In this document: piece after piece, positions 16,613-58,146 of the stretch
How the letters are laid out: each line of letters starts with the position of its first letter
Numbering within the stretch: the stretch's first letter is position 1
NCBI GenBank assembly: GCA_964291215.2
Contig: OZ219790.1
Coordinates: 384,001 to 448,000 of the forward strand
DNA: 64,000 bases
Source of the DNA: Alphaproteobacteria bacterium
GTDB taxonomy: Bacteria; Pseudomonadota; Alphaproteobacteria; MPNO01; UBA830
Direction: 5' to 3'
Position numbers and translations under genes: made by a program
Notes under the pieces: generated by a model
Databases searched by the model: none
The model's input: the letters and a program-made list of their open reading frames with translations, nothing else
Told to the model about the DNA's origin: nothing

Positions 16613-16744
16613 GTGGGGCAACAAAAAATTCAGGCTCATCCCGATTACGGCAATGCGGCCGAAGGATGCCGCTGAAGGCCGGCGTAGCGCTGTGGAGAGA
16701 ACGGGACTAGGGTTGGCCATTCGCTTCGATGGATGAGGCTGGCA

Positions 16745-19700: not shown

Positions 19701-20416
19701 ACTCCCAGCCGGATCCGTTTGTCGGTTCAGTTGCTGAACACACTCATAAGGTAATTTCTGGAGGCGTTGACGCCCTTTCAGCCGTATTTGCCCGCGTCCC
19801 CGCAGCAGTCGACAACGACAATCTGGCAGATGCGCTACGGACGTTCCTTGCGGACCTAGAGGGAGACGGCATCCCTGCATTGAGGCTCGAAGCGGCGGCC
19901 TTGAAGGTCGTGCCCGAAATGCTGGAACGGGTGATCGGGCGAGTGAAGGCCGCGTTGTCTGACACCGAGCGCGGCGTGATAGTCGATGCGCTGTCTGCGA
20001 CGGAACTTCTGGCGGCGCATACGCTGCCGGAGGACAGGCGCGAGACATTTTCCGCAGTGGAGACGACGCTTGCCGATGGTATCTGGTGGCGCCACCGTCC
20101 AGCGCTTGCCGCGAGGCTGCGCTATACGGGGAGCCTGGTCAGGAGGCTGCCCTGGTTCCTGCCCAGGGAGAGAGAATGCGGTCTGCTGGCAGGCCTCGGT
20201 CATATCTCCGAAGAAACCGATCAGAACCGCGTCAGGGGTAACGATGGGGACGAACTGATCCCGACCCGGGCCTCGGCCGCGGCCCTGGCATCGGCGTTGG
20301 CTGAGCGCTACAGCGCGTTGGGGAAGGAGGAGCCGGGATCGATCAGGCGCTGGCGGGCGATCTGTAGCGACTCCAGTGAATTCGTAGAGGTCCGCAATGC
20401 GTGGACAGCGCTCTAA
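16745..20416 (+). CDS. Defence-associated sirtuin, Dsr1-like (N-terminal SIR2 NADase plus long helical region)
   Basis: VMVGAGFS, FTTNYD, KLHGS and GFSADDPNF motifs; ~1220 aa ending EFVEVRNAW. Intact. Confidence 0.82.
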   Translation: MSDEAPAHVKCCLDDLAARLWANKAAVMVGAGFSLNASSEFPIWQKLGDRFYERIHGCSPGDDARYLDILKLAGQVQAMFGRPALDDLLRQAIPDRHPPSLLHSRLLGLPWKDVFTTNYDTLLERALPAVPLKHYTVVTTEKEIPDAEGARIVKLHGSFPEGPFIITEEDYRRYPLDHDPFVNTVRQALLENKLCLVGFSADDPNFLQWLGWMRDHIGRKDALGIYLVALGRLGEADNQLLCDRGIVPIDLSWIAPGHEKREEEALNWLLKELEERKPRVSEWPRVSPEEQPWLRQSDPHRYGEVVEEWRRQRLDYPGWVVAPAEGRLQLWLHTENWLSHLSGLSGAERQALEPGLDLDLAFELAWRLDRCLMPLRVPTVGDLSSFLEEVEHKYGNASAEFLEEVGRETTCVVAAVFEVRLWLMRHYREQGLHDEWEAVRRRLEASLNLNAITLEYRARFRLETALQALFRFDPEEARQLLADEWPDNDATPFLDTNRTVLLAELQGDKDARPALESSLATIRRQQRQNRGADDYTLVSQESVVMLHYQMLDSGLLTVEEDSEQPSGIDLRDLTERQNELVRYNCAPHREVELLSAHVRSAPPTPPWSTRVETPDFDTGLVFRNYRFGPDEEALSAYRLLRMYEDLGMPYRIGYTTFVGRWLEGAVRRMGMQSPHWALVAIARLGSERAADSLFDREYLAGLTQTEVDRHCDAYLKALDRIVSMFEGTAPSGDGILEPLARTLPEVFSRLCCKCSPEYRECLVEMLGRIYGLPPRWRLVFNIPRFVHRLLESMSAVELARAAPTLIGLPQPLPMGPGGGISVGEHVHPVLLVNLPEPVRPGALGIQPGKVDELLDRMSCSTSKAERDWAAAPLVWLHEKDQLDEEQSKRLGNLVWDGVEAPEVPVVPGYPDFMCLRLPHPADIDPEPLVKQRLRSKIPHWGRTVPDNSMNELRNSAFWVKWTRPEAKELLAEASNWWRSNKHGTHDSQPDPFVGSVAEHTHKVISGGVDALSAVFARVPAAVDNDNLADALRTFLADLEGDGIPALRLEAAALKVVPEMLERVIGRVKAALSDTERGVIVDALSATELLAAHTLPEDRRETFSAVETTLADGIWWRHRPALAARLRYTGSLVRRLPWFLPRERECGLLAGLGHISEETDQNRVRGNDGDELIPTRASAAALASALAERYSALGKEEPGSIRRWRAICSDSSEFVEVRNAWTAL

Positions 20417-32135: not shown

Positions 32136-35100
32136 TCAGTCACTCAGAAGGTATTGCGTGACCAGAGCCCGCATGATGGCCTCACCTCGTCCGGAGAGCC
32201 GTCGAATGTCGACCTCCGACATCGCGGAGAAATCGGTCGGATAACGAATCACATCTTCTCTGTCGACCCAGTTGGCTGGCTTGAGCGGCACCCGCCGGTC
32301 GATCTGTCCGAGAGCGGCGTAGACGAAGCCGTCAATGCGTTCCGCCTTGGCGTGCTCGTGTAGGCGTTGCTTGGTCGCGTCCTGGACCTTTCGCATGATT
32401 GCGGAGACGACTTGGCTCATGCGCTTCGGCCAGCTGAGGGGGCGGATCTCGCCGGTGAACTGGCCGATCCCGGCGTCGCTTGCGATGATGATGTCGACGT
32501 CGTAGTCAATCGTGCTGATCCGGGGATCCCGGTCAGGTTCCATGACGGTAATGCCGAGGTTCTCGAAAACGCCGCCATCGGTCACGATGACCCGCTGCAT
32601 TTCGGTCTTGTCGTTTAGTTTGAACGGCCTTCTCCAGTCGAAGGGCGGAAGTAACGGCGGGTAAGCGGCCGAGGCTGCGACGGCGTCGGCCACGCGAAGT
32701 TCTCTGGCCGGAGCCCATCCATACCGGTAGGAGCCGAAGCGTTGGTTGCTCATGCGGAAGGCAGTGCCGGTTCGAAGCTCACACGCGTTGAAGACGATCA
32801 ACTTGTGCTGACGGGTGGGTGCATCGCATTTCTGCGGGCCGACCACGTCGGCAATGGCGTCGGCCAACACATGCGTTAGCGAGTAGCGGCGTCGGATGGG
32901 CCACGAGGTGCGGGACAGCGCGGCGCATGCACTGCGGAGACCCGGGAAGAGCGAGGCGACACGACTCGCCGACCCGGTGAGGAGGTCGACAAGGAGCGTT
33001 GGGAAGGCGACGAAGACGAAGTTCCATACAAGGGGCGCAGCGCGCGCGGGATGGATGAGTTTCACGAGTCCCGGCACTACCAGGCCCCGGCGAAGGAACT
33101 GGACGATGTTGCGATCTATGTCGACGAACGGTGCTTCGGTATAGCCGAGCCTCCCGGTCATGACGGCCCCACCCGACACGCCGGAGATCACGTCGACCTC
33201 ATTGAGCAAGTTCAGGTCTTCGAGCGCGCGCAAGGCGCCAAGGTGAAACGCAACGGCGCGTGATCCGCCGCCAGAGAGTGCCAGACCGATCACCTTGTCG
33301 AGCGCCGCGACGGGAGGCGGAGTGGTGATGCCGCCGCGGACCGAAAGGGCCAGCTCGGTTTCGGTATCAAGCGCGGCGAGTTTCTGTTTCTGGAATGTGT
33401 AGACTCCGAGTTCCGGTTGCGTACGGACCGCGTGGCCGACGATCGCCATCAAATGATGGGCGCCGTCATCAGGAGCCGCTGTAAAGATGTCGGTGATGCC
33501 CAGGTAGTCGGTGAAGCTGGGTTGGGCACTACCGACCGGATGGGAATGCCAGGTGCCGATGTAGCGAACGATACCGTCGGTGCGCGCGCGGTAGTCCTCG
33601 CACAGCTCCCTCGTGCCGTGCGTTCCGCAAACGAAGCCCTCGGGAGAGAAGGTGCTGTCGCGCGGGGGGCCGCTGACGTTGGTAATCCACGCGATTCCGA
33701 GGGTCTCGTCCAACTCGCCGAACAGCAGGCCGCCGGTCTCGTGCTCGGCGGAGCGTTCACGGGCGCCGGCGCGGACCCAGCCCGTCATGTCGCGCCAGGC
33801 GTTCATGGACATGCGGAAGTCGATTCCATCGGCGATCCAGCGCATGTCGGGTCGAAAGCGGAACCTGTGCTCGCGACGATGGGGAGAGCACGAAATGAGA
33901 AGACCGCTGGCTGCATCGTCCGGTTCGGCGAGGATTTGGGCGAGAGCGTTGAGGGCTTGGGCAGAGAGCGCGGCGACATCGGTATGCGACGCCACGAAGG
34001 TCGGATTGGAGCAGCCGGGCTCGGGTTGGCGGAGGCCGTCGATGGCCCCCTGGGTCCAGAAGGCTTCGGACCAGTCGCTCAGCCAGTCCCGCGCGATGGC
34101 GGCGATGCCGAGACGGCGAAGCGCGTCGAGGGGGCCGGCGCGGTATCCGGTTGGAGCGAGCACCGCAACCGCTTGGCGGGCGGTGGCGCTGATCATCAAG
34201 GTCGCAATGGGAGCCTGGCGCTCGTGCTCCTTGAGCAGCGCCTCGAGCTTGCTGCGCACCTGCAGAGACGCGGTCGCGTCGATGATGAGGTCGGCATCCG
34301 CGTCCCAGTCCGGTTCGGCGAGGGTGTGCGAGATGAGGTCCTCGGACCGGGTCGTGACCTGAAGTCCGGGGGCGATGGATTGCAGACGCCCGGCAAGCGC
34401 CGCGGCCTTGGGCTCATTGGCGTCGAGTGCGGAGAAATTCTGCCGTATCAGCAGACTGGGAGCGACACGGCCTCGATCGAAGAGCTTGAGTTGGGACACA
34501 CCGGCGCGTACGAGATGTTCGGCGATGAGCCCGCCGATCGCCCCGCAGCCCCAGAGCGCAACGCGCTTGCCGCGAAACCAGTCCATCGATGTGCCCTCGT
34601 CGCGCCGAGTGATGACTTCGGGCCGGTTCTCAATCACATGACACCATCGTACACGGGCTTCCTTCCTCCAGGTAAACAAGGTGCCGAGGATGGTGTCGCT
34701 CAATGCCTGTATGGCAGCGGGAGTGTCCTGTCCTTTGTAGCGGTTGCTGAATTGGCAGGCGATGGATGCGGCGCGCAGCTTGGCGACGTCCCCCGGCTCA
34801 ATTTCCCAGAAGGTGAGGTGCTGGTTTCGTTGTGCGGGGTCGCCAGCGATGCCGCGCGACGGCGCACCGATGCCGATGTAGAGTGAGGTGCTATCGGGGA
34901 TCCGCTCGGAAGCGACCATCATGTGGGCAAGGAAGCGGTAGCCCAGACGTCCCTTGGCCTCCAGGTAGTCGAAAAGGTATCGTACTTTGCGCGGGTACTC
35001 GAACGGAAGCTCGAAGTTCAGCAGCACGGTCGGCGCAAACGGCATGTGGTCGGGGAGCGCATGCAGGGGGATCCACGCCTGGACTTCGAGAAGGGCCGGT

Positions 35101-35636
35101 TTGGGCTCATGGAGGGTGGCGGCGCCGAACCATGGCCAGGTATCACGAGCCGGGGTGTCGGCGTTGACGCAGATCGTAGTTGTGGCAACCGGGTAGGTGA
35201 CCGGCGGGTGCAGGGGTCCCTCGGGATCGTCGAGCTCGTTTCGCGCTCCGCGTCGAAACCACTCGTCGATCTGCGCCAAGAACCCGAACATGCCTTGGGA
35301 GGGGATCCACTGGGTCTCGGTGGACAGATAAACGCAGAGACGGGTTCCCCACTGCACATGGCCGAAGCCGTGGAACCGGGAATGGGGGGTGTCGACCGAC
35401 GGCGAACTGAATGGAAAATCCGCCGGCACCGAAAGCGTGATGCCTTCTCGGTCGTGCAGCGGAAGGCCTCCCTCGACACGCGGGTAGTGCGTGCAGTCGA
35501 GCGAGATATCGACGTTCAGATAAGCGCCGGGAGCCGGGTCATCGTCGATACCGACGATCCGGATGGGAGATCGGTGCGTATTGGCGATACGCCGGAGTTG
35601 GGTGAGGGCAATCCGTTGCCCTTCACTTATTGCCAC
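32136..35636 (-). CDS. Four-domain fusion: E2-like / ThiF E1 / JAB protease / patatin phospholipase
   Basis: E2: FPFSSP..HVQWGTRLCVY. E1: WGCGAIGG, FDRG, LIRQ, IIDATA, PEPGC. JAB: ETGG..GTWHSHP..PSFTD. Patatin: LSGGGSRA, GVSGG, DGG. One uninterrupted 1166-aa frame. Confidence 0.88.
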   Translation of the reverse strand: MAISEGQRIALTQLRRIANTHRSPIRIVGIDDDPAPGAYLNVDISLDCTHYPRVEGGLPLHDREGITLSVPADFPFSSPSVDTPHSRFHGFGHVQWGTRLCVYLSTETQWIPSQGMFGFLAQIDEWFRRGARNELDDPEGPLHPPVTYPVATTTICVNADTPARDTWPWFGAATLHEPKPALLEVQAWIPLHALPDHMPFAPTVLLNFELPFEYPRKVRYLFDYLEAKGRLGYRFLAHMMVASERIPDSTSLYIGIGAPSRGIAGDPAQRNQHLTFWEIEPGDVAKLRAASIACQFSNRYKGQDTPAAIQALSDTILGTLFTWRKEARVRWCHVIENRPEVITRRDEGTSMDWFRGKRVALWGCGAIGGLIAEHLVRAGVSQLKLFDRGRVAPSLLIRQNFSALDANEPKAAALAGRLQSIAPGLQVTTRSEDLISHTLAEPDWDADADLIIDATASLQVRSKLEALLKEHERQAPIATLMISATARQAVAVLAPTGYRAGPLDALRRLGIAAIARDWLSDWSEAFWTQGAIDGLRQPEPGCSNPTFVASHTDVAALSAQALNALAQILAEPDDAASGLLISCSPHRREHRFRFRPDMRWIADGIDFRMSMNAWRDMTGWVRAGARERSAEHETGGLLFGELDETLGIAWITNVSGPPRDSTFSPEGFVCGTHGTRELCEDYRARTDGIVRYIGTWHSHPVGSAQPSFTDYLGITDIFTAAPDDGAHHLMAIVGHAVRTQPELGVYTFQKQKLAALDTETELALSVRGGITTPPPVAALDKVIGLALSGGGSRAVAFHLGALRALEDLNLLNEVDVISGVSGGAVMTGRLGYTEAPFVDIDRNIVQFLRRGLVVPGLVKLIHPARAAPLVWNFVFVAFPTLLVDLLTGSASRVASLFPGLRSACAALSRTSWPIRRRYSLTHVLADAIADVVGPQKCDAPTRQHKLIVFNACELRTGTAFRMSNQRFGSYRYGWAPARELRVADAVAASAAYPPLLPPFDWRRPFKLNDKTEMQRVIVTDGGVFENLGITVMEPDRDPRISTIDYDVDIIIASDAGIGQFTGEIRPLSWPKRMSQVVSAIMRKVQDATKQRLHEHAKAERIDGFVYAALGQIDRRVPLKPANWVDREDVIRYPTDFSAMSEVDIRRLSGRGEAIMRALVTQYLLSD

Positions 35637-36780
35637 GACCGAATCCGACCGCGACGGCAGGCGGCGACGCGGCGACGCCGCCGACAGCCTTCAGCACCTC
35701 GCTCATGGAGCTGCTCGATTGTGTGTCGCCAACATATGCGAAACCGTTCCGGTCGACCTCGAAGATGATCGGCTTGGGATTCTTGCGGTTCGGGTGTTCG
35801 TGGGTGCACAGGAAGGCGTTGGCGACGATGCGTTCGTACTGTCTCTTCGCCTTGGCGTGAGGTGGGTTGTCGCCCGGGTCGTTGCGTGTCGGCACAGGTT
35901 CGGAACTCGAGACGACATGTCCCGGGTTGAGGGCTGCGGCAGCGATCTCGCGAACGATATGCTCCTTTAGGGTCTCGTCGCTGTCCCCCTCTTCCTTCCA
36001 GTACATGGCGGACTTCGAGCAATGATGCGGGGCGAGCAGCACATTCCAGGCGAGTGTCGTGCGGATACTTCGGTGGAAGATTCGCCGGATGACGGGATAG
36101 CTGAGGTCCCCCATGAGCAGTGCCCGGCCAGCGTGGTTGCCATTGTAGAGCGAGACCTGGAAGGCGAGGCTGCAGTCGTTGCGGTCACCGAAGCTGTCCT
36201 CGCGAAACGGGGCGTGGACAAACGCCTCGAACCGATTGGAGAGATCCTCACCGTCCAGTGTCGTAATGGTCTTACCGGGAATGGTCAGGAACTGCGCGGG
36301 GAAGCCACGAAACTCGCGTTCGCACAGAAGGTCGTCGTAGCCGATGATGCGAATGCGGTTACCCCGGCCGGGGTCGCCGCCCGCCCGGATAGCGGCTTGG
36401 ACGCGACGCATGGCCTCATCGTGAAAGGCTTGTGCGTCGTCGCAAAGGTCGTCGCCCTCCATGAATTCGCGAAAGGTGCGCGGCGACATCCAGAGTTCGG
36501 AGACGATGACGCGGCGTTTCAACTCCTCGAAGCCCTGGCAATGGTCGAGATCGGGATGGCTAAGTCCGAACACCGACAGGTATGGCGTGCCGCTGAGTCT
36601 CGGAAGGATACGTATGAGCTCGTCGATGACCGGCCAGGCGGGGTCGCTGCGGTTTCCCGCCTTGGCCATGTGCCGAAGGTCGATTTGAAGGTAAACCGTT
36701 TCTGTTACTCGAATGGTCGTGCTGTCGCCCGTGCCGACGGGCCAGAAGATGAAGCCCTGATCAGGTGGTTTGATGGCCAT
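35623..36780 (-). CDS. MBL-fold (ComEC-like) hydrolase with GFG-containing C-terminal tail
   Basis: VGTGDS, SHPDLDHCQG, NDCS, LMGD and APHHCS motifs; ends PPAVAVGFGRGNK. Overlaps the next gene by 14 bp. Confidence 0.85.
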   Translation of the reverse strand: MAIKPPDQGFIFWPVGTGDSTTIRVTETVYLQIDLRHMAKAGNRSDPAWPVIDELIRILPRLSGTPYLSVFGLSHPDLDHCQGFEELKRRVIVSELWMSPRTFREFMEGDDLCDDAQAFHDEAMRRVQAAIRAGGDPGRGNRIRIIGYDDLLCEREFRGFPAQFLTIPGKTITTLDGEDLSNRFEAFVHAPFREDSFGDRNDCSLAFQVSLYNGNHAGRALLMGDLSYPVIRRIFHRSIRTTLAWNVLLAPHHCSKSAMYWKEEGDSDETLKEHIVREIAAAALNPGHVVSSSEPVPTRNDPGDNPPHAKAKRQYERIVANAFLCTHEHPNRKNPKPIIFEVDRNGFAYVGDTQSSSSMSEVLKAVGGVAASPPAVAVGFGRGNK

Positions 36781-37056
36781 GTTCCGCAATCCCCTTGGTT
36801 ATTATTGAAACCGAGCATACTGAGGAGAAACACTCGCCCAACACAAGATATGGGGGTAGCTGGGCTGATTTCAAGGCTTGGGCAAGCGGCACCGTTATGG
36901 CACGGGCCAAGTGACGCCCGGTATGGAGCTCGAGTGCGCTGACGGAAGACGAGCAGCGGGAGCGGCACGACGGCTTGCGGGAGGTGGGTGCCTTCGTGCC
37001 GGCGTTCCGGCTCGCGCTTCCAGGGGCAGCGTCCTTGGCCTGGCGGGGCGGTCTCA

Positions 37057-43624: not shown

Positions 43625-44032
43625 TCAACATGGAGATTCGATAGGACCGGAGTTTATCCGAGTGGTCAGCGGGCAAATGTCCCAATCAAGGACGCGACCA
43701 AGCGAGAAGGCGCGGAATCGGCCTTTTCCTTCCTTGCCGTGCAGAATTCGCTTCTGTCCGTTCGAATGAAATCGCGATTGTTTCCACGATCCTCCCAGAC
43801 GGGAGAACAACCCCTCGGCTTCGGCAAAGGGAATGCCATGTCCGTTGTCGGCGACTCTGATGGCCTTGAGCCCGTCGAGGTCCTCTTCAACCAGCGTCAC
43901 GTCGATATGCGTGGCATCCGCATCGACTGCGTTCCAGATCAGCTCGGCCAGGGCAAGGAGGGGTTTTCGGGTCTGCGCGACCCGTTCCAGATGGTCGTCC
44001 TGAACCTGTATCTCAAAGGTCCTGGCGGTCAT
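43625..44032 (-). pseudogene. GHKL/HATPase ATPase N-terminal fragment
   Basis: [14 protein letters not shown] and GKEGKGRF motifs. ATGA-coupled to hsdR; truncated after ~120 aa. Confidence 0.8.
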
Positions 44033-47000
44033 GCTGCCCACTTCGCCGATAACGCTTCGGCCTGTTGCAGAACCGTCTGCACGGCGGCGTCCTGGAGGTC
44101 GGGCGGATACCCGTGCTTGCGGAGGATGCGCTTGACCAGAACCCGCATCCGGGCGCGGGCCGGCCCGCGGTGCTGCCAGTCCACGGAGGCTTTGCTTTTC
44201 AGCCCGTTCAGCAATTCCCGGGCGATGACGCGAAGGTGATCGTTGCCCATCACCTCGACCGCGCTCTCGTTCTGGGCCAGGGCATCGTAGAAGGCGATTT
44301 CCTCGGGGCTGAGACCCTCCTCCTCGCCGCGCCGGTGTGCGGCGCGGATGTCCTTCGCAAGCCCGATCAGTTCCTGAAGGACCTCGGCCGTCGTGAGGGC
44401 GTTGCCGTGGTAGCGGGCGATCGCTTCTTCCAGCCTCCGGGAGAAGGCCCGGGTCTGCACGACGTTGACCCGGCTTCGCGAGCGAAGCTCCCCGTTGATG
44501 AGCTTGCGCAGCGCCTCCAATGCGAGGTTCTTCTTCTCCATCTCCCGTATCTCGGCCAGGAACTCGTCGGAAAGGATGGAAATGTCCGGCGTATCCAGCC
44601 CGGCGGCTGCGAGAATGTCGACGATCTCGGTCGAAACGACCGCGCGGCTGACGATCTGCTGAACCGCCAGGTCCCGCTCCGCGGAGGACTTGCCGGCGCC
44701 GGGCGCGCTTTTGGCGAGCGCTGCACGGACGGTCTGGAAGAAGCCCACCTCGTCGCGGATTTCCCGGGCTTCGTCGCTGGCGGCCGCGAGCGCGAACGCC
44801 CTGGTGAGCGCCAGCACGGCGTCGTTGAAGCGGCGCCGGGCGTGCTTCTTGCCTTCTCCGGTCGATTCCCGGGCCGCCTCGCGGTGCTGCATGTCGAGGA
44901 CCCACTCGATGGCGCCGGCCAGCGCCGCGAGCCGCTCCTGCGGCGACCCGACAAGGCCGTTGCGGAAGTCGAAACCATGGAACATGGCGCTCACGATCTC
45001 GTACTTCTCCAGCATGACCGCGACGGCTTCGGCCTCGTCGATGCCGGCGTGCCTTCGGTCGTCGCGCGAGTACTGGCCGAGGGCGGACTTCAGGTTCTGC
45101 GCGATGCCGATGTAGTCCACGATCAGACCGGCGGGCTTGTCGCGGAACACGCGGTTGACGCGGGCGATGGCCTGCATGAGCCCGTGCCCCCGCATGGGCT
45201 TGTCGATGTACATCGTGTGCAGGCGCGTCGAAGCCGGTCAGCCACATGTCCCGCACGATCACCAGCCTGAGCGGGTCGTCCGCGTCCTTGATCCGCTTGG
45301 CGAGCAGCTCCCGGCGGGCCTTGCCTCCGATGTGGCGTTGCCAATGCGTCGGGTCCGACGCCGCGCCGGTCATGACGATCTTGATGACGCCGCTTTCGTC
45401 GTCGTCGCTGTGCCAGTCCCGGCGCAGCCTGACGATCTCGCCGTAGAGCGCAACGCAGATGCGGCGGCTCATGCAGACGATCATGGCCTTGCCGTCCATG
45501 CCGGCAATACGACTCTCGAAATGGTCGACCAGATCCCGGGCAACCAGGCGCAGGCGCTTCTCCGTCCCGACGACGGCCTCGACGTTCGCCAATCGTCTCT
45601 TGAGCCGTTCCTGCTCGCCTTCGGCCTCGTCCTCGATCAGTTCGGCGACCTCGTCGTCGAGCGCCGGCTTCTCACCTTCGTCGAGTTCGATGCGGACGAG
45701 GCGGCTCTCGTAGTAGATCGGTACGGTCGCGCCGTCTTCGACGCCGCGGTTGATGTCGTAGATGTCGATGTAATTGCCGAACACGGAAGGCGTGTTCACA
45801 TCCTCCCTTTCGATCGGCGTGCCGGTGAAGCCGATGAAGGAAGCGTTCGGCAGGGCGTCGCGCAGATATTTGGCGAAGCCGTAGGAAATCTCTCCGGTCT
45901 TGCGGGCCATCCTGGCGCGGAAACCGTACTGGCTGCGGTGCGCCTCGTCCGCGATCACGACGATGTTGCGGCGGTCGGAGAGGGCCGGGTATTCGATCTC
46001 GCCGGCCTCGGGTGCGAACTTCTGGAGGGTGGTGAACACCACGCCGCCGGACGGACGCGTCAGAGCCTGTCGCAGGTCCTCCCGGCTGTCGGCCTGCCGC
46101 GGGGTCTGGCGGAGCAGGTCGCGGCACATGGAGAACGTGCCGAACAACTGGTCGTCGAGGTCGTTGCGGTCGGTGAGGACCACGAGGGTCGGGTTCTCCA
46201 TCGCCGGGTGGGCGATGACCTGTCCGGCGTAGAACGCCATCAGCAGGCTCTTGCCGGAGCCTTGCGTGTGCCAGATCACGCCGATACGGCGATCGCCTGC
46301 CGGGCTCGTCGCGGTGATCGTGCGCTCGATCGCATGGCGTACGGCGTGAAACTGGTGATAGCCGGCCACGATCTTGACCAGTCCCGCGCCCGTGTCCCCG
46401 AACACGGTGAAGTCCCGGATCAGGGCCAGGAACCGGTTCTTCTCGAACACGCCTTCGACGACGGTTTCGATCTCGGGGGCGCCCTTCGATGCGACGGCGG
46501 CGCCGTCCACGGTGCGCCAGGGCATGAACCGCTCAAGATTGGCGGTCAGCGATCCGAACCGCGCCTGAAGGCCGTCCGAAGTCATGAGAGCGGCATTGGT
46601 GCGGAACAGGGAAGGTATCTCCTCCTTGTAGGTCCGGAGCTGGTTGAACGCCCCTTCGAGGGTGGCGTTTTCGTCGCCGGGGTTCTTCATCTCGATCACG
46701 GCCAGCGGCAGGCCATTGAGGAACAGCACGATGTCGGGGCGGCGATTGTGTTCGTGCTCGATCACCGTGAACTGGTTCACCGCCAGCCAGTCGTTGGCCT
46801 CGATGTCGTCGAAATCGATCAGACGGGCAGCGTCGCCGCCGATGCTGCCGTCCTCCCGCGCCACCTCGACCGGCACGCCCGCGATCAGGTAGCGGTGCAG
46901 GCGGCGGTTCTCCTCGACGAGGGAGGGAGTCTCCGTCTGCCGCACCTTGCGGAGCACCTCCTCCAGCGCCGCGGCGGGCAGGTCCGGGTTGAGGCGGGCG

Positions 47001-47164
47001 AGCGCCTCGCGGAACCGGCCGGCCAGCAGCACCTCGTCGTAGCTGCCCCGCTCCGGCGCCGGGCCTTCCGGGCCCATGTCCGGCCCATGAACCACGGCAT
47101 AGCCCAGTCCGGCGAGCCATGCGAGAGCCGCGTCTTCGACATCCGATTCGGAAAGACGGCTCAT
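44029..47164 (-). pseudogene. hsdR: Type I restriction subunit R, one frameshift at ~45222
   Basis: RPD..EMK nuclease, [16 protein letters not shown] and FTGTP motifs. MWLTGFDA and [10 protein letters not shown] are out of frame. Confidence 0.92.
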
Positions 47165-48150
47165 TCGCCGGATTCGCCCAGAAGATTGACGATAAGGCGA
47201 ATTATGAGATCCTTGTTCGACGGTGCGCTTTCGGCGATCAACAGGGTGAGCGCCGTCAACCCCCGGGGGTCGAGCCGGTGCGCGATTCCCTCCTGTGTCA
47301 GATAGAGCAGGAACAGCAGGGCGCCGATGCGCTTGTTGCCGTCGGTGAACGGGTGATCCTTGACCAGAAAATAGAGCAGGTTGGCCGCCTTGTCCGCGGC
47401 GCTGCGGTAAAGGGGTTCGCCGAACATGGTCTGCTCCACATTGCCGAGAATGGCTTTCAGGGCTTCGCCGCGCCGGGTGCCGAACAGCGATGTGGCTTCG
47501 CCCTTTGCCGCAAGATCGCTCCTGAAAGCGTCGATCGCGGCGACGGCGGTGTCGAGGCCGAGCGCGCTGGTGGCCGGCTTCGCGCCGGCCGGCGCCTTGA
47601 GGCGGTCCTCGTCGTATTCGAGCAGCACGCGCCACGTGTCGGCGTATCTTGTGATCAGGTCCAGTACGGACTGGCCCGTTTCGTCGACGAGCGCTTGGTT
47701 CCTGAGCGTCCGGGCGAGCAAACCCAGGGTTTGGCGCGCCTCGTCGAGGCCCCGCTCGGCAAGCCGCCGCTCATTCATCGTGTAACCGCTGACGAGATGC
47801 TCGCGCAAGGTGCGGGTGGCCCAGATACGGAACTGTGTGCCGCGCAGGGACTTCACCCTGTAGCCGACCGAGATGATCATGTCGAGGTTGTAGTGATCCA
47901 CCTCCCTGGATACCCTTCGCCCGCCCTCGGATCGAACCTGTGCAAAATTTGCACAGGTTGACCCTGGGTCCAGCTCTTGTTCACGGTAGGCGTTGTGGAT
48001 GTGCCGGGCGATTACGGAACGATCCCGCCCGAACAGTTCCGCCATCTGCGGCCGGGTCAGCCAGACTGTCTCCCTGTCGAAACGCACGTCCACGCGCGCC
48101 TCGCCGTCCCCGGACTCGTAGACGATGACTTCGCCGCCGGGGGAGTTCAT
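47161..48150 (-). CDS. RhuM / Fic-DOC fusion protein
   Basis: [21 protein letters not shown] (RhuM) and HPFTDGNKR (Fic). Confidence 0.9.
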
Positions 48151-49759
48151 GCAACGTCCTCGACTGCCTCTTCGGCATCACGAAGGCGGATTTCGCCGGA
48201 CATGAGCTTGGGGAGCAGGAGGTCGCGGGTTTCTGCAAGCTTTCGGCTCTCCAGTTTATTCTTGATGGTGTGTTCTATCAGCGGGCCAATCGACGGGCCA
48301 AGCAAGGAAAGGACGCCATCAGAGGGGCAAGTCGTTGTTGCCTCCTTCAGGTGCCGTCGTTGAATGTGACCCATGGTTGTTGTCTTCGAGGCTGCTATAG
48401 CCTGAAACTCTTCCAAGTGATGGAGAACCCACTGGCTGACGAACCATGATGGAAATCTCTCCGAAGTCACTTTGAAGAGGTGTTGGTTCAGCGCTCCTTC
48501 GCCTTCGGTCCAGAACTTTGCAAGAAGGCTGCCCGACCAAGAGAACAAGAAGTCACCATCCCTCACGACATACTTGTCTGGGACATCGTATGAGGCCCGG
48601 CTAGATCTGGGCGTTATGCCCGCGCGCAACTCGGCGATTTTGATGACCGGTAAACTGTCGTCAGGGCCCAAGGCAGGAAATTTCTGAAGAGCCAGACCGT
48701 TCAGGAAGTTTGCGATCTTGTCGAGAGGCAGTCTCACCCACCCGGCCGGCTTGCCCTCGCCGTCCAGCGCATCGGGAAACAGTTCCCACAGTTCGGGGGC
48801 GAGGTACGGAGCACGCCCTTCCATTTTCGCCCGGACCGGCCCGAAATCGACGAACCAGTCCTTGAAGATCGCCCGCGCCATCGCCTCCAGCGTCTCGTTC
48901 ATGCGCCGGTTCAGTTCGATCTTGTCGTCCAGCGCGCCGAGAATGCCCGCAATGGCGCGCTGTTCGAGTAGGGGGGTACTGGAACCGGCAGATAACTCAG
49001 GGAATCGACAGGCACTCGCTGACGCCCGGAAGTGCCGGTCATTTGATCCACGGCGTAGCTTCTCACCCCCTCCCATTGAGTTAGGTAGTAGGCGTACTCG
49101 GAATCCGTGACGCCCGCGCGTCCGCGGATAACGATGAACTCGGTCGAGCCATGCGCGCACTCTGCCGCCCGGTCTGTGCAATAACGGGCAATCTTGCCAT
49201 TCTCCAAGCACGGCGTAATGCGCGCCATGAGCGTGTCGCCATCTTGGAAGCGCGACCCGCCGCCGGAATAGGCGCGCCGGTCAATCGCATGTACGCACCG
49301 GGAACCGGCAGTGACCGCAGCCATATCAACGAACGGATACGCCATTCCGCGTTCAAGACGCACTGCCGGGTTGACAACGACTGCTTCGGTAAACGGCATA
49401 CGCCGCCACTTTTCATCTACAGAGAGCCTCCTTCGCCTGGTGTCATCAATGTCTGCCAGCACCGCATGGTTCCGCTCAATCTCCCGATGAAATCGCTCCG
49501 GCAGGCGCGCCCAGTCGCGGGCCTCGACCAAGAAGGGAATGGTCGATTCCCGCACCGCCTCCTCGAAGTCCGCCAACTTGTCGGCCGGGATCTCCCCCTG
49601 TCCCGGCCCGCGCAGCACCAGATCGAGATCACTGCCGTCATGGCTGCGCCCGTTGACGCGGCTGCCATAGGCCCATACCTCGACATCGGGCAAATGCTCC
49701 CGCAGCAGGGCTGTCAGCACCTGGCGGTGCTTCGGCTCAAGATGCAACCGGTCAGTCAT
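48147..49759 (-). pseudogene. hsdS: MNT nucleotidyltransferase-HsdS fusion, frameshifted at a C6 tract
   Basis: N-terminal YGSRVNG..SDLDL, then TRD1 (ARITPCLENGK). VPP and LLEQRAIA..LDDKIELN are out of frame at 48971-48976. C-terminus LAETRDLLLPKLMSGEI. Confidence 0.88.
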
Positions 49760-50177
49760 CCGGCGCCGCCTCGATCATGTCCGCCAGCGCCCGGGCATCG
49801 GCGATAAAGTCGGGCAACAACTTGAGCGGGGTCTCGGCGAAGCCTGCGCCGTAGTCGTGCGCGGTATCGTTGCGGTTGTCGCGATAGCTGAACCAGCGTT
49901 CCGCCGCGACGGCTTCGATCAGTCCGTGCCGGGCGGCGTGGCGGAACAGGTCCTTGAAGGCAAGCCGGTCCGCCTGTCTGTTGCTGGCGAAGAAGGCGGC
50001 AAGCCGCTTGCGCAACAGTTTGCCGCTCTGCTCCAACACCAGCTCGAACTCCTTCACGCAGGCGGCGCGATAGATGTCATACATGAAATCGTCCGTCGCG
50101 CGCTGGTTGTCGATCTCGCCGAAAGCTGTCTCCAGCGTTCCGATGCAGCGCCGCAAGAAGGTGGTATCGATGCTCAT
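49752..50177 (-). CDS. HEPN-family protein (nucleotidyltransferase substrate-binding/HI0074-like)
   Basis: Start MSIDTTFL. KEFELVLE and RNDTAH (Rx4H) motifs; overlaps the MNT start. Confidence 0.85.
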   Translation of the reverse strand: MSIDTTFLRRCIGTLETAFGEIDNQRATDDFMYDIYRAACVKEFELVLEQSGKLLRKRLAAFFASNRQADRLAFKDLFRHAARHGLIEAVAAERWFSYRDNRNDTAHDYGAGFAETPLKLLPDFIADARALADMIEAAPDD

Positions 50178-50229
50178 GCCCCGCTGCTCCGTCCCCGGTG
50201 CGCAGACCCGTTGCGGCTCATCCATGAGC

Positions 50230-50610
50230 GGCAGACCGATTGGTCGATCAATTTCGGCAAGATTATGAGCCTCAGCAACCGTTGCTATGACACAGGCGTG
50301 CGCCATGTTGCCCACCGGAATTTCCTCCAATTCTGGTCCGCGCAGCACCAGATCGAGATCGCTGCCGTCATGGCTGCGCCCATTGACGCGGCTGCCATAG
50401 GCCCACACTTCGACATCGGGCAAATGCTCCCGCAACAGTACCTCAAGCGCCTCGCGGTGCTTCGGCTGGAGATGCATCCGGTCAGTCATCCGGCGCCGCC
50501 TCGATCATGTCCGCCAGCCCCGGTGTCGGCGATAAAGTCGGGCAGCAGCCTCAGCGTGGCCCCGGCGAAGTCTTTCCCGTTGTCATGGACGATATCGTTA
50601 TCGACAATCC
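50230..50610 (-). pseudogene. Remnant of a second HEPN-MNT(-HsdS) module
   Basis: 50341-50570 is a diverged duplicate of 49611-49842 (HEPN 3' end plus MNT 5' half). Confidence 0.8.
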
Positions 50611-50724
50611 CTCGCAGGTCATGGCAGGGGCAAGGCTGTCGGGGAACAGCCTTCACTGGAAGGCGCCGCGCGCCTTGGCTTACCGACATATTTCCCGGCG
50701 CATGCAAATGGGAAGAGATCATCG

Positions 50725-52263
<1,539 letters not shown>

Positions 52264-52472
52264 ATAGTCTGAATCCTTGGCCGCCAACGCGGATACAGTT
52301 TGCCGACTCGGCTCTACGAATACCACTGCATACTTGGCCGACACGGTTCGGGTGGGGAAGGATCCCGTAGATCGCGGTGCCACCATTCCAGCGTCGCCGA
52401 CGCTGCCCAACAGATCAATATGATAGCGCGTCACGGGGTACAGGATGCGCCGCCCGAGCGACAGGCACTGAG

Positions 52473-54533: not shown

Positions 54534-54962
54534 CTACTTACGCCAACTCCCTGACCATAGACCACGCCATATTCGTACGATCCGTGATCGAAGAGCCCGA
54601 CGGCTCCGTGTTGAGTCCAGCAAACGGGCCCGCTCGCCGTCGACATACTCCGAATGACGACTTGGATCGATCCCCTCCAACCAAATCACCGCGTTATCCC
54701 GTATCACGTAGTGGCTGCCGCAGCCGGAATTGGCCCACACGGATCCACCCGTAGGACCGTCCAGCGAGACCGACTTCCCATCGAAGTGAACGTGCCATCG
54801 ACTGGGGTGGAGGGACAGCACCGTCAGATCGCCGCATCCGCAAGGGCAGCGCAGGTTGACAGTCCGATGTTTGTGGCTGATCCAAAGCTCGCCGGTTTTG
54901 ATTTGGTCGAACTTGGGCAGCACCTCTACGAAGACAGGGCAGAGTTTCACGGGCATTCTCAC
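54534..54962 (-). CDS. DUF6527-like Cys/His-rich protein
   Basis: LRCPCGCG..SLHP..SVW..GCGSHYVIR..VIW; GTGA overlap with the ThiF stop. Confidence 0.75.
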   Translation of the reverse strand: MRMPVKLCPVFVEVLPKFDQIKTGELWISHKHRTVNLRCPCGCGDLTVLSLHPSRWHVHFDGKSVSLDGPTGGSVWANSGCGSHYVIRDNAVIWLEGIDPSRHSEYVDGERARLLDSTRSRRALRSRIVRIWRGLWSGSWRK

Positions 54963-56161
54963 CGCGAGTCATTCGCTCTGACACTGACAATGCGCGGGGT
55001 TTCGAGTCGGAATTTATAGAGGAACGAAGCCGACTCCGACACATACTGCTCCGTGCGGCGCCGCCACTCCATCACGGCGAGCGACGCCGCCAACGCGTTC
55101 ACTTCCGGTAACTGGACGTTGTGATAGCCGGGCACACTGCCCTCGATTCTAGCGTTCGGTATGGCCTCCTTCCATGCCTCAGACCCAGCGGCATAGGCGC
55201 TTGTCGTCACGGCGCCTCTAACAGCGCAGTCTTCCAGCGCTATGCTCACGCCCGAATCTATAAACGGAACCTTCGTCTCAGAGAGTGCGCAGTAGACGGC
55301 ATCCTGACGCGACGAATCGCCGTTGGTCAGCTGGTCGATACACACGAATGCATAGTCGATGGGGTGTGCCGACAGAAACTTGCCGAAAATTGACGGACTG
55401 TCTACCCGGACAGCGTGCGCGTGGATGCCTTCCCGGAGAGGTGTATACTTGGAGAAGTAGTAGTCTACTTTGCGCAAATGTTCCTTTTTGCACGACTCAA
55501 CCTCCTCGGCTGTAGGTGCACCGGGCGCACGCATCAAATTGTGCCAGTTAACGTCGTCTGAATCCAGTAGATGAATTTCCTTCACGGGTGTTTTTGCGAC
55601 AAGATCGAGGACGTAGGCGCCTGTTCCGCCCAGACCAATGATCGCAATCCGTTGACTACGGATGCGATCCTGAACCGGCCTCAACGCCGCTCGTGCCTCG
55701 AACGTGTTGGGTATCTTGAAAGGCTCCTGCTTCGCTAGAGAAGCGGTTTCGTAGTAACCGGCCTCCGACACGGCCCCGACGATCTGCTTCGCGTAGCGGT
55801 GAATCAAGTCATCCACCGACCCATCCTCCTCCGGACTGCCTTGCCCACCTTTCTTGATGGAAATGATCGACCAAGTCTTTCCATCGCCGGCGATGTAGTT
55901 CTCGATCGGGGTTCCATCCGCGTGGTACACGCGCCCGTCGAGTTCTTCGTCAGTGATGATCCGCACCGCATGGATCGCGTCGCCTATCTGATCATTCGGC
56001 TTCCCGTTCGCGCGGTCGTACGACTTCTCTATAGTGCAAGTGCCAACGCCCCTGTCTGCAAGGAGACAAGGCACCCCCACGGCCCGGACGACATCGGAAT
56101 CGACTCTGATGCTAAACCCGGCCTGCTCACCGAACGCTTTGAGGCGATTCCTACGAGACAT
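54959..56161 (-). CDS. ThiF/E1-like adenylyltransferase with N-terminal extension (DUF6791-like)
   Basis: IIGLGGTG, LLDSD, NLMR, FVCID, PFIDSG and YHNVQLPEVNALAA motifs. Probable ATG at 56161 overlaps the Ubl stop. Confidence 0.85.
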   Translation of the reverse strand: MSRRNRLKAFGEQAGFSIRVDSDVVRAVGVPCLLADRGVGTCTIEKSYDRANGKPNDQIGDAIHAVRIITDEELDGRVYHADGTPIENYIAGDGKTWSIISIKKGGQGSPEEDGSVDDLIHRYAKQIVGAVSEAGYYETASLAKQEPFKIPNTFEARAALRPVQDRIRSQRIAIIGLGGTGAYVLDLVAKTPVKEIHLLDSDDVNWHNLMRAPGAPTAEEVESCKKEHLRKVDYYFSKYTPLREGIHAHAVRVDSPSIFGKFLSAHPIDYAFVCIDQLTNGDSSRQDAVYCALSETKVPFIDSGVSIALEDCAVRGAVTTSAYAAGSEAWKEAIPNARIEGSVPGYHNVQLPEVNALAASLAVMEWRRRTEQYVSESASFLYKFRLETPRIVSVRANDSR

Positions 56162-56399
56162 GCTCGGGGTCGACCGAAAAGCTTGTGCCGTCCTTGACTT
56201 TAACATCCTTGCTCGGCAAGAGAACACCATCCTCGTCCTTGAAATCGTCTTTGTAGTCGATGCCGGGTGTACCGATGATGTGCTTGTTCTCTGCCTTGTG
56301 CAGCTTGTTCCAGATCTTTACGACCTCGGCATAGTTAACAATATGGCCGGGGACTTTGTACACTCGACCGCTCACGTAGATCTCCGTGTCGCCATTCAT
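56151..56399 (-). CDS. Ubiquitin-like (multi-ubiquitin domain type) protein
   Basis: EIYVSGR..VNYAEVVKI..IDY..GVLLPSKDVKVKDGTSFSV fits a beta-grasp pattern; 82 aa ending EHVS. Confidence 0.7.
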   Translation of the reverse strand: MNGDTEIYVSGRVYKVPGHIVNYAEVVKIWNKLHKAENKHIIGTPGIDYKDDFKDEDGVLLPSKDVKVKDGTSFSVDPEHVS

Positions 56400-56826
56400 C
56401 GTTTTACTTCTCCGATTGTTGGAGGTTGAAGGGAATTCGAACCACTCGGCCCAATTGTACATCATGGCAACCCGATGTTCGTCGAAGCACGGGTGGGTCT
56501 TGGCGCTCCGCGCTTCCCGGCGCCATAATCTCCGACCTCAATCCGGGCTCGCACGGCATGATCTCCGTGTAACAGCAATGCGCCTCTGCCGTACGAACTC
56601 CGCCGCCCCTTCGGTCAGATCCAGGGTCCTCCGAAGGCCAACGAATCTCGTCACTGCATCGCCGCCCTCGATACCAGTGTATTGTTGGGCAGCCTGATGG
56701 CGCGACGGTCCGACCCACCTTGTCACAGGTGCCGCGGTGATCTATCGTGTATGCCCATGCAGTCCACGGGCAGATAGCCTTACGCGGTGCTGACGAGATC
56801 CATTGATGCATGCGTCTCACTGAGAT

Positions 56827-56846
56827 TGTTGTCCGTACAGACAACA
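56827..56846. promoter_or_regulatory. Palindromic operator candidate TGTTGTC-N6-GACAACA
   Basis: Perfect 7-bp inverted repeat 35 bp upstream of the XRE gene, in the divergent intergenic region. Confidence 0.55.
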
Positions 56847-56880
56847 TAAGCCACCGCGGCCGCATGTCAAGGGGAGAGCG

Positions 56881-57264
56881 ATGTCGTTCGGCTACACGCT
56901 GAGGAGGTTCCGGGAAGCCCGTGGTCTGAGCTTACGCGAGTTCGGCAAGCTCTGCGGAATCGACCACGCGTACATCCACCGGCTCGAACGGGAGGAAAAG
57001 ACGGCTCCCTCCGAGCAAGTGGTCGACACCTTCGTCCGCACCTTGAAGCTCAACTCTCGAAGGGCGCGCCTGCTGCGCCTGCTGGTCGGGAAGACGATCA
57101 ACCGTACCCTCATCGACGTGTTCATCGAAGACGAGCAGCGACCGCTGGACCTACTAGAGCCTGCTCACCAGATGAGCTTCCGGGGAACGCGCCCTGAAGC
57201 CAAGGACGACTGGCGCCGGCATGTCGATCGTTTGGCTCGCCTGTTCGATGAAGACGACGAATGA
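56881..57264 (+). CDS. XRE-family HTH regulator (CapH-like)
   Basis: FGYTLRRFREARGLSLREFGKLCGIDHAYIHRLE..PS. Confidence 0.9.
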   Translation: MSFGYTLRRFREARGLSLREFGKLCGIDHAYIHRLEREEKTAPSEQVVDTFVRTLKLNSRRARLLRLLVGKTINRTLIDVFIEDEQRPLDLLEPAHQMSFRGTRPEAKDDWRRHVDRLARLFDEDDE

Positions 57265-58146
57265 ATGGACGAGTTCCCGACGATTCTCAGTGCTCGCCAG
57301 TTCCTTCGGGACGCTGGCAACGACTCTGTGCCCGTCGACGTCGGGCGCTTGGCTGCGGCAGCCAACGCGAAGATCAAGGTCGCTTACGATCTCGCCGACG
57401 ATGAATCTGGCCAGACCACCCGGTTCAAAGGAACACACGTCATCATCGTCAACGGCAATCACACGGAGGAGCGGCAGCGCTTCACCGTGCTTCATGAAAT
57501 CGCCCACATCGTTCTTGGACTGCCTTCCCAGCACCACGGCTCGACGCTCAAGACCGACGTGCTTCTCCGGTACGGACGGCGACCCGAGGAAGAAGTGCTT
57601 TGTGATGTTTTCGCTGCCGAGTGCCTGCTTCCTTACCACCCGTTTGCCGAACAAGTCGCCGACTCGGAAATCTCCCTGAATGCCGTGAAGTCGCTTGCCC
57701 GAGAATACAAGGCATCATTGACCACGACGGGATCGAGATTCGCTCTGAATGCGAGAGAGCCCTGTGCGTTCGTCCTCAGCGAGAACGGGCGGATCCGTTA
57801 TGTGTCCCGGTCGAAATACCTGAATGAGCTGAAGGGATGGATCAATTTCAACGCCTCTGTGCCGCAAGGCAGCGTCGCGCAGCGCCTGATCGAGGGTGGT
57901 CCGAAGATCGAGGATTACGACGAACTCCCAACAGATGTCTGGTTCGACGGAGGCGTCAGGAACCGACCATTGATTGCTGAGGAAGCCATCCTCCTGCGGG
58001 ACTGGAATCAATGTCTTTCACTCATCTGGTTTGACGAGCGCCTGACACCAGTCCGGGAGCGCCGGGACGAGGATGAAAAGGTTGAGCCTTTGCTCCAACA
58101 GCTTGACGGTACACTACCGTGGCCATCCAGAAGTCGCCGTGGATAG
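57265..58146 (+). CDS. ImmA/IrrE-family Zn metallopeptidase (CapP-like)
   Basis: RQRFTVLHEIAH and E..CDVFAAECLLP motifs, with a C-terminal GAF-like region. Confidence 0.9.
   Translation: MDEFPTILSARQFLRDAGNDSVPVDVGRLAAAANAKIKVAYDLADDESGQTTRFKGTHVIIVNGNHTEERQRFTVLHEIAHIVLGLPSQHHGSTLKTDVLLRYGRRPEEEVLCDVFAAECLLPYHPFAEQVADSEISLNAVKSLAREYKASLTTTGSRFALNAREPCAFVLSENGRIRYVSRSKYLNELKGWINFNASVPQGSVAQRLIEGGPKIEDYDELPTDVWFDGGVRNRPLIAEEAILLRDWNQCLSLIWFDERLTPVRERRDEDEKVEPLLQQLDGTLPWPSRSRRG

Follow-up and report, generated by a model that had tools for sequence, protein, structure and literature searches.

Three consecutive minus-strand genes that encode a small ubiquitin-like (Ubl) protein ending in serine, a ThiF-type activating enzyme (E1) and a DUF6527 protein raise the question of which conjugation system they form, since neither a JAB gene nor a separate conjugating enzyme (E2) gene is present in the operon. 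The genes lie, together with two divergent regulator genes, at positions 54,534 to 58,146 of a 64,000-nucleotide stretch of an Alphaproteobacteria bacterium (assembly GCA_964291215.2, contig OZ219790.1), the whole of which is called the window here. The five genes are an intact, sequence-divergent Type II Bub operon (BubA-BubBD-BubE) with a CapH/CapP switch, and the features that seemed odd at first are normal for the family. By analogy with the characterized systems, this operon very probably tags proteins with the serine-ended Ubl through Tyr and Ser esters, and is likely to be switched by DNA damage. The features of the locus are as follows.

bubA, 56151..56399, minus strand: single beta-grasp ubiquitin-like protein, 82 aa, C-terminal Ser82, ends in PEHVS
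bubBD, 54959..56161, minus strand: E2-E1 fusion, 400 aa; E2-like domain at about 1–135 (His64, Ser101), ThiF/E1 domain at about 160–392 (Arg211, Tyr346)
bubE, 54534..54962, minus strand: DUF6527 protein, 142 aa, GTG start; predicted Ser74-His84 protease with a Cys39/41/43/81 zinc site and a C-terminal extension
capH-like XRE repressor gene, 56881..57264, plus strand: 127 aa; Phe100-Arg101 is a candidate cleavage site
capP-like HExxH metallopeptidase gene, 57265..58146, plus strand: 293 aa; helix-turn-helix (HTH) and GAF-like parts; cysteine-switch Cys absent
sigma-70-like promoter, 56843..56870, minus strand: points to bubA; candidate from a consensus match only (10/12)
imperfect palindrome of 20 bp, 56827..56846, no strand: adjoins the −10 box; candidate CapH operator

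Gene set and layout

The genes bubA and bubBD overlap by 11 nt, and bubBD and bubE by 4 nt (GTGA). The capH and capP genes abut without a gap (57264/57265), and the two groups, all five genes of which are intact, diverge across a 481-nt gap. The GC content of the five genes is 51–61%, compared with 63% for the window. The preliminary description of this DNA had noted the three intact overlapping genes, the divergent HTH and HExxH peptidase pair, the Ubl that ends in EHVS instead of Gly and the E1 devoid of CxxC zinc pairs, and all these observations hold. Above the Pfam cut-off are ThiF (E 1e-13, residues 162–390), DUF6527 (E 3e-15), HTH_31 (E 4e-12) and Peptidase_M78 (E 5e-14). Among the profiles that the description had put forward, ThiF and DUF6527 are thus found; the Multi_ubiq match of BubA (E 0.003) is below the cut-off, and DUF6791 is not matched. 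PADLOC lacks models of both BubA and BubE, its matches to BubBD are generic E1 ones only, and the NCBIfam ThiF/MoeB scores of BubBD are far below their cut-offs. No tRNA was found by a search of the window.

Type II Bub (formerly 6E.2) consists of a Ubl, an E2-E1 fusion and a DUF6527 protein, typically without a JAB peptidase (Ye et al., 10.1101/2024.11.21.623953; Gong et al., 10.1101/2024.11.21.623966). A translated plasmid search with BubBD gave 127 records, 20 of which span 80% or more of its length with identities near 30%. All of the eight plasmid matches that were opened are multiubiquitin-ThiF-DUF6527 operons; one comes from Runella slithyformis DSM 19594, which also figures in the alignment of Ye et al., possibly with the same gene. 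The assignment to Type II Bub follows from the gene set and order, which equal those of the published definition and of the eight plasmid operons. The catalytic residues are conserved as well (see below), consistent with the conjugation system proposed earlier. Because the ThiF protein carries the E2 as a fused N-terminal domain, the operon is complete instead of stripped down, as it had been called; the absence of JAB and separate E2 genes was correctly seen, whereas the E2 itself is present. Nor is the system uncharacterized, since Ye et al. (10.1101/2024.11.21.623953) defined the family and reconstituted it in vitro.

The conjugation machinery

In the Type II enzyme of E. coli ZDHYS365, the R219A, Y342F and S106A mutations abolish the BubA conjugate, whereas a K108 mutation does not (10.1101/2024.11.21.623953). 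Counted by eye along Table S2 of that report, His66, Ser106, Arg219 and Tyr342 of E. coli equal His64, Ser101, Arg211 and Tyr346 of the window protein. These four residues are invariant in all the 119 close homologues listed out of 3,043 matches. In an alignment of 107 distant relatives (99 of 150 listed representatives, 51 shorter than 370 aa having been dropped, and eight plasmid proteins), the same columns hold His in 107, Ser in 102 (Cys in five), Arg in 107 and Tyr in 106. The five proteins with Cys at the E2 column (P0167, P0182, P0198, P0201 and P0269) keep the His and the loop Tyr, and are candidates for a relay from a Tyr oxyester to a Cys thioester, judging from the alignment.

The N-terminal domain model (pLDDT, the predicted local distance difference test, 86) matches Citrobacter BubB best among 48,161 chains (Z 6.5, root-mean-square deviation 4.4, 107 residues aligned), followed by RWD domains and then UBC enzymes. 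The top Foldseek hit of the full-length BubBD model (pLDDT 87) is BubCD (E 2e-12). Eight intermediate proteins with 33–39% identity bridge the E2 motifs of this subfamily and of canonical BubBD. These comparisons support, at modest scores, a predicted E2/UBC fold for the N-terminal domain, where the "missing" E2 would sit. On the sequences and models, we regard the domain as homologous to the canonical one despite its escape from DUF6791. Searching by sequence with BubBD or BubE brought up no Bub protein in the PDB, and the Ubl profile reached E. coli BubA at no better than E 1.4.

The profile of the BubA family matches nine canonical Type II Ubl domains with a probability of 97% (E 8e-11; profile-profile comparison with the window sequence excluded from the canonical set), and BubA is folded at pLDDT of at least 87 inside the complex model with BubE. 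These results support the predicted assignment of the small protein, as earlier proposed, to the beta-grasp Ubls of the multi-ubiquitin type. The C-terminal residue is Ser in 118 of the 119 listed BubA homologues (out of 274 found) and Gly in one, and 115 of the 119 end in DPEHVS. All nine aligned canonical Type II Ubls end in Ser, as does E. coli BubA (Table S2, 10.1101/2024.11.21.623953). The Ser C-terminus is therefore the norm in Type II, including the E. coli protein studied biochemically, and by this analogy Ser82 would be the activated end, as had been suggested. Longer bubA starts (104 aa) were rejected, since 102 of the 119 homologues have 82 aa and the extensions are not conserved.

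In BubE, Cys39, Cys43, Cys81, Ser74 and His84 are invariant in all 120 homologues listed out of 399 found, and Cys41 is kept in 118. The motif S-V-W...G-C-x-S-H is common to Type I Bub and the window BubE with the same spacing. The distance from Ser to His is 10 residues, as in Citrobacter (Ser92, His102), compared with 11 in E. coli Type II. As shown for Citrobacter, BubE is a Ser-His protease of weak activity, and in cells it removes conjugates (10.1101/2024.11.21.623953). Modelling of the operon's proteins in complex, as had been proposed, gave for the BubA–BubE pair (BubE 4–116, BubA and zinc) a score of 0.85, whereas the highest of three controls scored 0.01; the score mark, which 116 of 157 solved pairs and 2 of 215 mismatched ones attain, is only roughly applicable to this pair. 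The runs share at least 88% of contacts, the partner has a pLDDT of at least 87, and residues 75–82 of BubA contact residues 71–79 and 84 of BubE. BubE thus retains the Ser-His dyad known from the published serine protease, the model docks the Ubl tail there, and the four cysteines are predicted to form a structural zinc site. Of the roles considered at first for the DUF6527 protein (thiol acceptor, E3 or peptidase), that of peptidase is thus retained and E3 is dropped; the thiol role is dropped because the cysteines belong to the predicted zinc site and the relay uses Tyr and Ser oxyesters.

Related loci and rival readings

A genome scan gave 36 loci: two near-identical ones, 30 others with much of bubBD (L003–L032) and four fragments. 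In 27 of the 30, a full bubA ending in PEHVS lies directly upstream of bubBD, and bubE is downstream of bubBD in all 30; bubBD is frameshifted or truncated in five. The repetition of the three-gene order in 27 of 30 other loci indicates that the arrangement is not due to chance. In L027 (1743–3804 and 4750–6505), a Type I Bub operon (E2, JAB-E1 and BubE) lies just upstream of the subfamily Type II operon, and a gene for a ClpP-like SDH serine protease lies between the two.

The relatives, at 60–83% protein identity, are distributed over Pseudomonadota, Chloroflexota, Acidobacteriota, Latescibacterota, Gemmatimonadota, Binatia and Saccharibacteria (from record titles; all metagenome-assembled genomes). 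These seven lineages are typical of marine sponges. The BubBD query did not find the protein in four same-genus or 18 same-family genomes, where weak matches were other ThiF proteins; 1 of 30 relatives has a canonical Type II operon. Exact peptide patterns, which detect close relatives only, found none in viral contigs and one in metagenome contigs. Elsewhere in the same genome is a second, truncated DUF6527 gene of canonical type (L046; G000:C1:869935-870024), with no bubA or bubBD within its 3-kb locus. Literature searches on sponge symbionts with ubiquitin-like or ThiF systems and on later Bub papers found nothing on this subfamily; Table S1 of Ye et al. gives IMG ids only.

In a quick tree from 61 of 133 rows, the subfamily and the intermediates are split from canonical BubBD by a long branch with a Shimodaira–Hasegawa-like approximate likelihood ratio test (SH-aLRT) support of 100. 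With two Type I E1 domains as the outgroup, the subfamily joins Type II (100) and branches off outside the clade of canonical proteins (94); the branches of the outgroup are long, and a single origin of the subfamily has a support of 73 only. Judging from these sequences, the window operon belongs to a deep-branching subfamily with a DUF6791-negative E2 domain, which has dispersed into seven bacterial lineages with an exchange of regulators.

Several points weigh against a canonical, working E2 and an anti-phage role. Pfam DUF6791 (PF20590), the usual marker of canonical BubBD though not part of the published Type II definition, is matched by none of five subfamily proteins (the window protein and four close homologues) versus all eight canonical ones. 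The E2-like domain compares weakly with canonical domains in hhalign (probability 69%, E 4e-5, 135 columns). Ser101 is out of register with the canonical Ser in hhalign and in MAFFT without intermediates, and is aligned with it only once the intermediates are added. The Z of 6.5 is tied with that for RWD (6.0), in a range that may mean a common arrangement only, and Foldseek with the N-terminal domain found nothing at E ≤ 0.001 (BubB at rank 10, E 0.05). The residue at +2 of the E2 Ser, expected in Type II Bub as an invariant Lys and present as Lys103 in the window protein, varies among the 119 listed homologues (Arg 60, Lys 44, other 15), although the E. coli enzyme can do without its K108; the residue at +3 is Lys or Arg in all of them. 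In addition, protection against phages was not found for Bub operons in the available parts of two reports (10.1101/2024.11.21.623953; PMC13373217). The weak scores, the alignment-dependent register and the variable Lys would suit a dead E2-like or RWD adaptor, with BubA being only adenylated or forming BubA-Tyr or BubA-BubA species without any E2 step. However, His64 and Ser101 are invariant in a domain otherwise only 53–80% identical between members, and a continuous series of intermediates joins the motif to the canonical one, which makes a dead domain extremely improbable. Changed chemistry is conceivable too, Cys32 and Cys42 of the E2-like domain carrying the Ubl as a thioester or acting as a redox or metal switch. 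Neither varies among the 119 close homologues listed, and distant representatives mostly have Tyr/Phe and Gly/Ala at these columns; each of the eight deep intermediates shown has Cys42, and Cys can fill the E2 site in five of the 107 distant proteins. Nevertheless, the Ser/His/Tyr/Arg set shows the same invariance, each of the two models places both cysteines within strands of the beta-sheet, away in sequence from His and Ser, and a buried structural role would be simpler; we consider such an offshoot very improbable. The bolder idea that this subfamily, carried sideways through seven lineages of marine host-associated bacteria, has a rewired E2 domain, with the two cysteines joining or redox-gating the transfer in a hybrid ester/thioester relay onto a target common to that community, is speculative and very improbable.

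Descent from an operon of the Type I Bub or Bil kind through deletion of its JAB and E2 genes, or a ThiF/ThiS-type sulfur-carrier pair, might be suspected from the missing JAB and E2 genes and from the BubE spacing shared with Type I. The conserved gene order already refutes a deletion, the same three genes being found in 27 of 30 related loci. It had been reasoned that homologous loci always including E2 or JAB genes would mark this copy as a deletion derivative; in fact, JAB and free-E2 queries matched L027 alone (1/30), where the matches belong to the separate Type I operon. The E1 also groups with Type II against the Type I outgroups (SH-aLRT 100), there is no Gly-Gly end, BubBD has six cysteines but no CxxC pair, and differences are concentrated in third codon positions. 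The probability of either origin is close to nil.

Regulators, mechanism and comparison with known systems

The switch of CapH/CapP type that had been postulated is recovered by PADLOC across the whole profiles (capH, E 7e-12; capP, E 7e-51). The peptidase carries the HEIAH motif at residues 77–81, and its best PDB match is CapP 7T5T from Thauera (E 6e-9, residues 68–266, including the GAF region). Position, profiles and domain make-up support a pair of the CapH/CapP type, as far as sequences can tell. Phe100-Arg101 of the repressor is in a segment aligning with the C-terminal part of the XRE regulator structure 6JQ1, which we take to be Deinococcus DdrO. It resembles the Phe82-Arg83 site at which CapH is cleaved (10.1101/2022.04.27.489752), and by this analogy is a candidate cut point for CapP. 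The cysteine-switch Cys, lacking in the window CapP, is present in only 33% of the CapP proteins from CBASS, the anti-phage signalling systems that rely on cyclic oligonucleotides (10.1101/2022.04.27.489752; 10.64898/2026.05.16.725639). CapH and CapP genes are beside 168 of 544 Bub operons (31%; 10.1101/2024.11.21.623953). By analogy with these systems, the bub operon is likely switched on by DNA damage.

The candidate operator palindrome is partly kept in L003, and one copy is present in the window, searched with a pattern taken from the site itself. The capH–bubA intergenic region (56400–56880) is unusually long. A 153-aa open reading frame (ORF) in it (56404–56865, minus strand) was rejected as a gene, since it has no Pfam match and the leader DNA is common only to L001–L003, L007 and a short piece of L006.

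The upstream ORFs of 27 of the 30 loci were picked by hand for a survey of regulators. An M78 peptidase is upstream in 20 of them, and the same 293-aa CapP only in L003; the others are unrelated shorter peptidases (about 185–235 aa) or HTH-peptidase fusions. Other pairs of XRE and short M78 proteins (about 185–205 aa) lie upstream of bubA in L004, L007, L009, L010, L012–L014, L017–L021, L023, L025, L030 and L032. The short peptidases seem to lack the GAF part, and each group has its own promoter sequence. Judged by these sequences, the regulators are swapped as modules over the same bub genes.

ATP-dependent BubA conjugation via oxyesters and BubE proteolysis have been shown for E. coli and Citrobacter proteins (10.1101/2024.11.21.623953), from which all the following steps are carried over to the window copy. 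Repression of the divergent promoter would come from CapH dimers, probably bound to the palindrome 56827–56846. Single-stranded DNA arising from damage or infection would activate CapP, which would cut CapH, probably at Phe100-Arg101. The E1 domain of BubBD would then adenylate the carboxyl end of Ser82 of BubA with the aid of Arg211. Tyr346 in the crossover loop would take BubA as an oxyester and transfer it, with His64 assisting, to the fused E2 domain at Ser101, and BubA would be passed to a lysine of a target protein. A JAB peptidase would not be needed, because BubA is made with a mature end. BubE, with its predicted Ser74-His84 dyad and structural zinc, would remove the tag and keep the system quiet. 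The putative role is most likely a stress or anti-phage response.

Around the operon are Type I restriction-modification genes, Dsr2, an E2-E1-JAB-patatin gene, insertion sequence elements and transposases, and integrase remnants; the operon lies in a mobile defence island. The 1166-aa ORF at 32136–35636 (minus strand) joins Prok-E2_A, ThiF, JAB and patatin, namely CBASS Cap2, Cap3 and a phospholipase effector in one chain. Upstream and overlapping it, at the place expected for a cyclase or other substrate, is a 388-aa ORF (35623–36789, minus strand), for which no Pfam, PADLOC or PDB match was found. A full-length Dsr2 anti-phage sirtuin is encoded at 16733–20416 (plus strand; PADLOC E 2e-276). 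The restriction-modification cluster (43625–52434, minus strand) contains hsdM and a specificity gene in pieces, interspersed with two ORFs for nucleotidyltransferases and with a RhuM/Fic gene; at its end, the hsdR ORF (1336 aa) has an HSP90-like ATPase match (residues 1227–1317), as a fusion or read-through.

The subfamily adds to the sequence diversity of Type II Bub a branch that Pfam DUF6791 searches miss, with the smallest Ubl form (one domain) and exchangeable regulators. The 60–83% identity over unrelated phyla suggests that the three genes are useful by themselves in many hosts. The conservation of the catalytic set across 30% identity is independent evidence, by comparison, in favour of the published ester mechanism and of a Ser C-terminus as the activated end; the available text of Ye et al. 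does not discuss the latter.

ThiF/MoeB sulfur-carrier systems have a Gly-Gly-ended carrier and an E1 with CxxC zinc pairs, both of which the window proteins lack. Bil (bacterial ISG15-like) systems likewise conjugate a bacterial Ubl via E1 and E2, but differ in having separate Cys-dependent E1 and E2 enzymes, a JAB peptidase, shown anti-phage activity and no DUF6527 protein; the separate Cys enzymes and the JAB gene are absent from the window operon. Type I Bub (Citrobacter RHBSTW-00271 BubAB, BubCD and BubE; PDB 9EA4–9EAV) shares a homologous E1, the E2 fold and the BubE motif, whereas its JAB-E1 fusion (BubCD), Ubl-E2 precursor or separate E2, and Gly-ended Ubl are absent here. The regulators resemble CapH/CapP (10.1101/2022.04.27.489752), relatives of which are DdrO/IrrE and ImmR/ImmA, in the divergent upstream position, in the XRE repressor and HExxH peptidase (HTH and GAF-like), and in Phe-Arg at the expected cut position; they differ in the cysteine-switch Cys, also absent in 67% of CBASS CapP.

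Compared with canonical Type II Bub, the window BubBD has about 30% identity and an E2 domain unseen by Pfam DUF6791, an E2 site of S-I-x-K instead of F-S-x-K-P and two invariant E2-domain cysteines, and the Ubl tail is PEHVS instead of T-D-K-S-like. E. coli BubA consists of three beta-grasp domains in contrast to one in the window BubA, and the Ser-His spacing of the window BubE, unlike that of E. coli, is as in Type I. Nevertheless, the operon shares with bubA-bubBD-bubE of E. coli ZDHYS365 the gene set and order, the lack of JAB, the E2-E1 fusion of about 400 aa, the E2 Ser and His, the E1 Arg and crossover-loop Tyr (not Cys), the Ser-ended Ubl, the four cysteines and Ser-His dyad of BubE, the divergent CapH/CapP and the mobile defence context.

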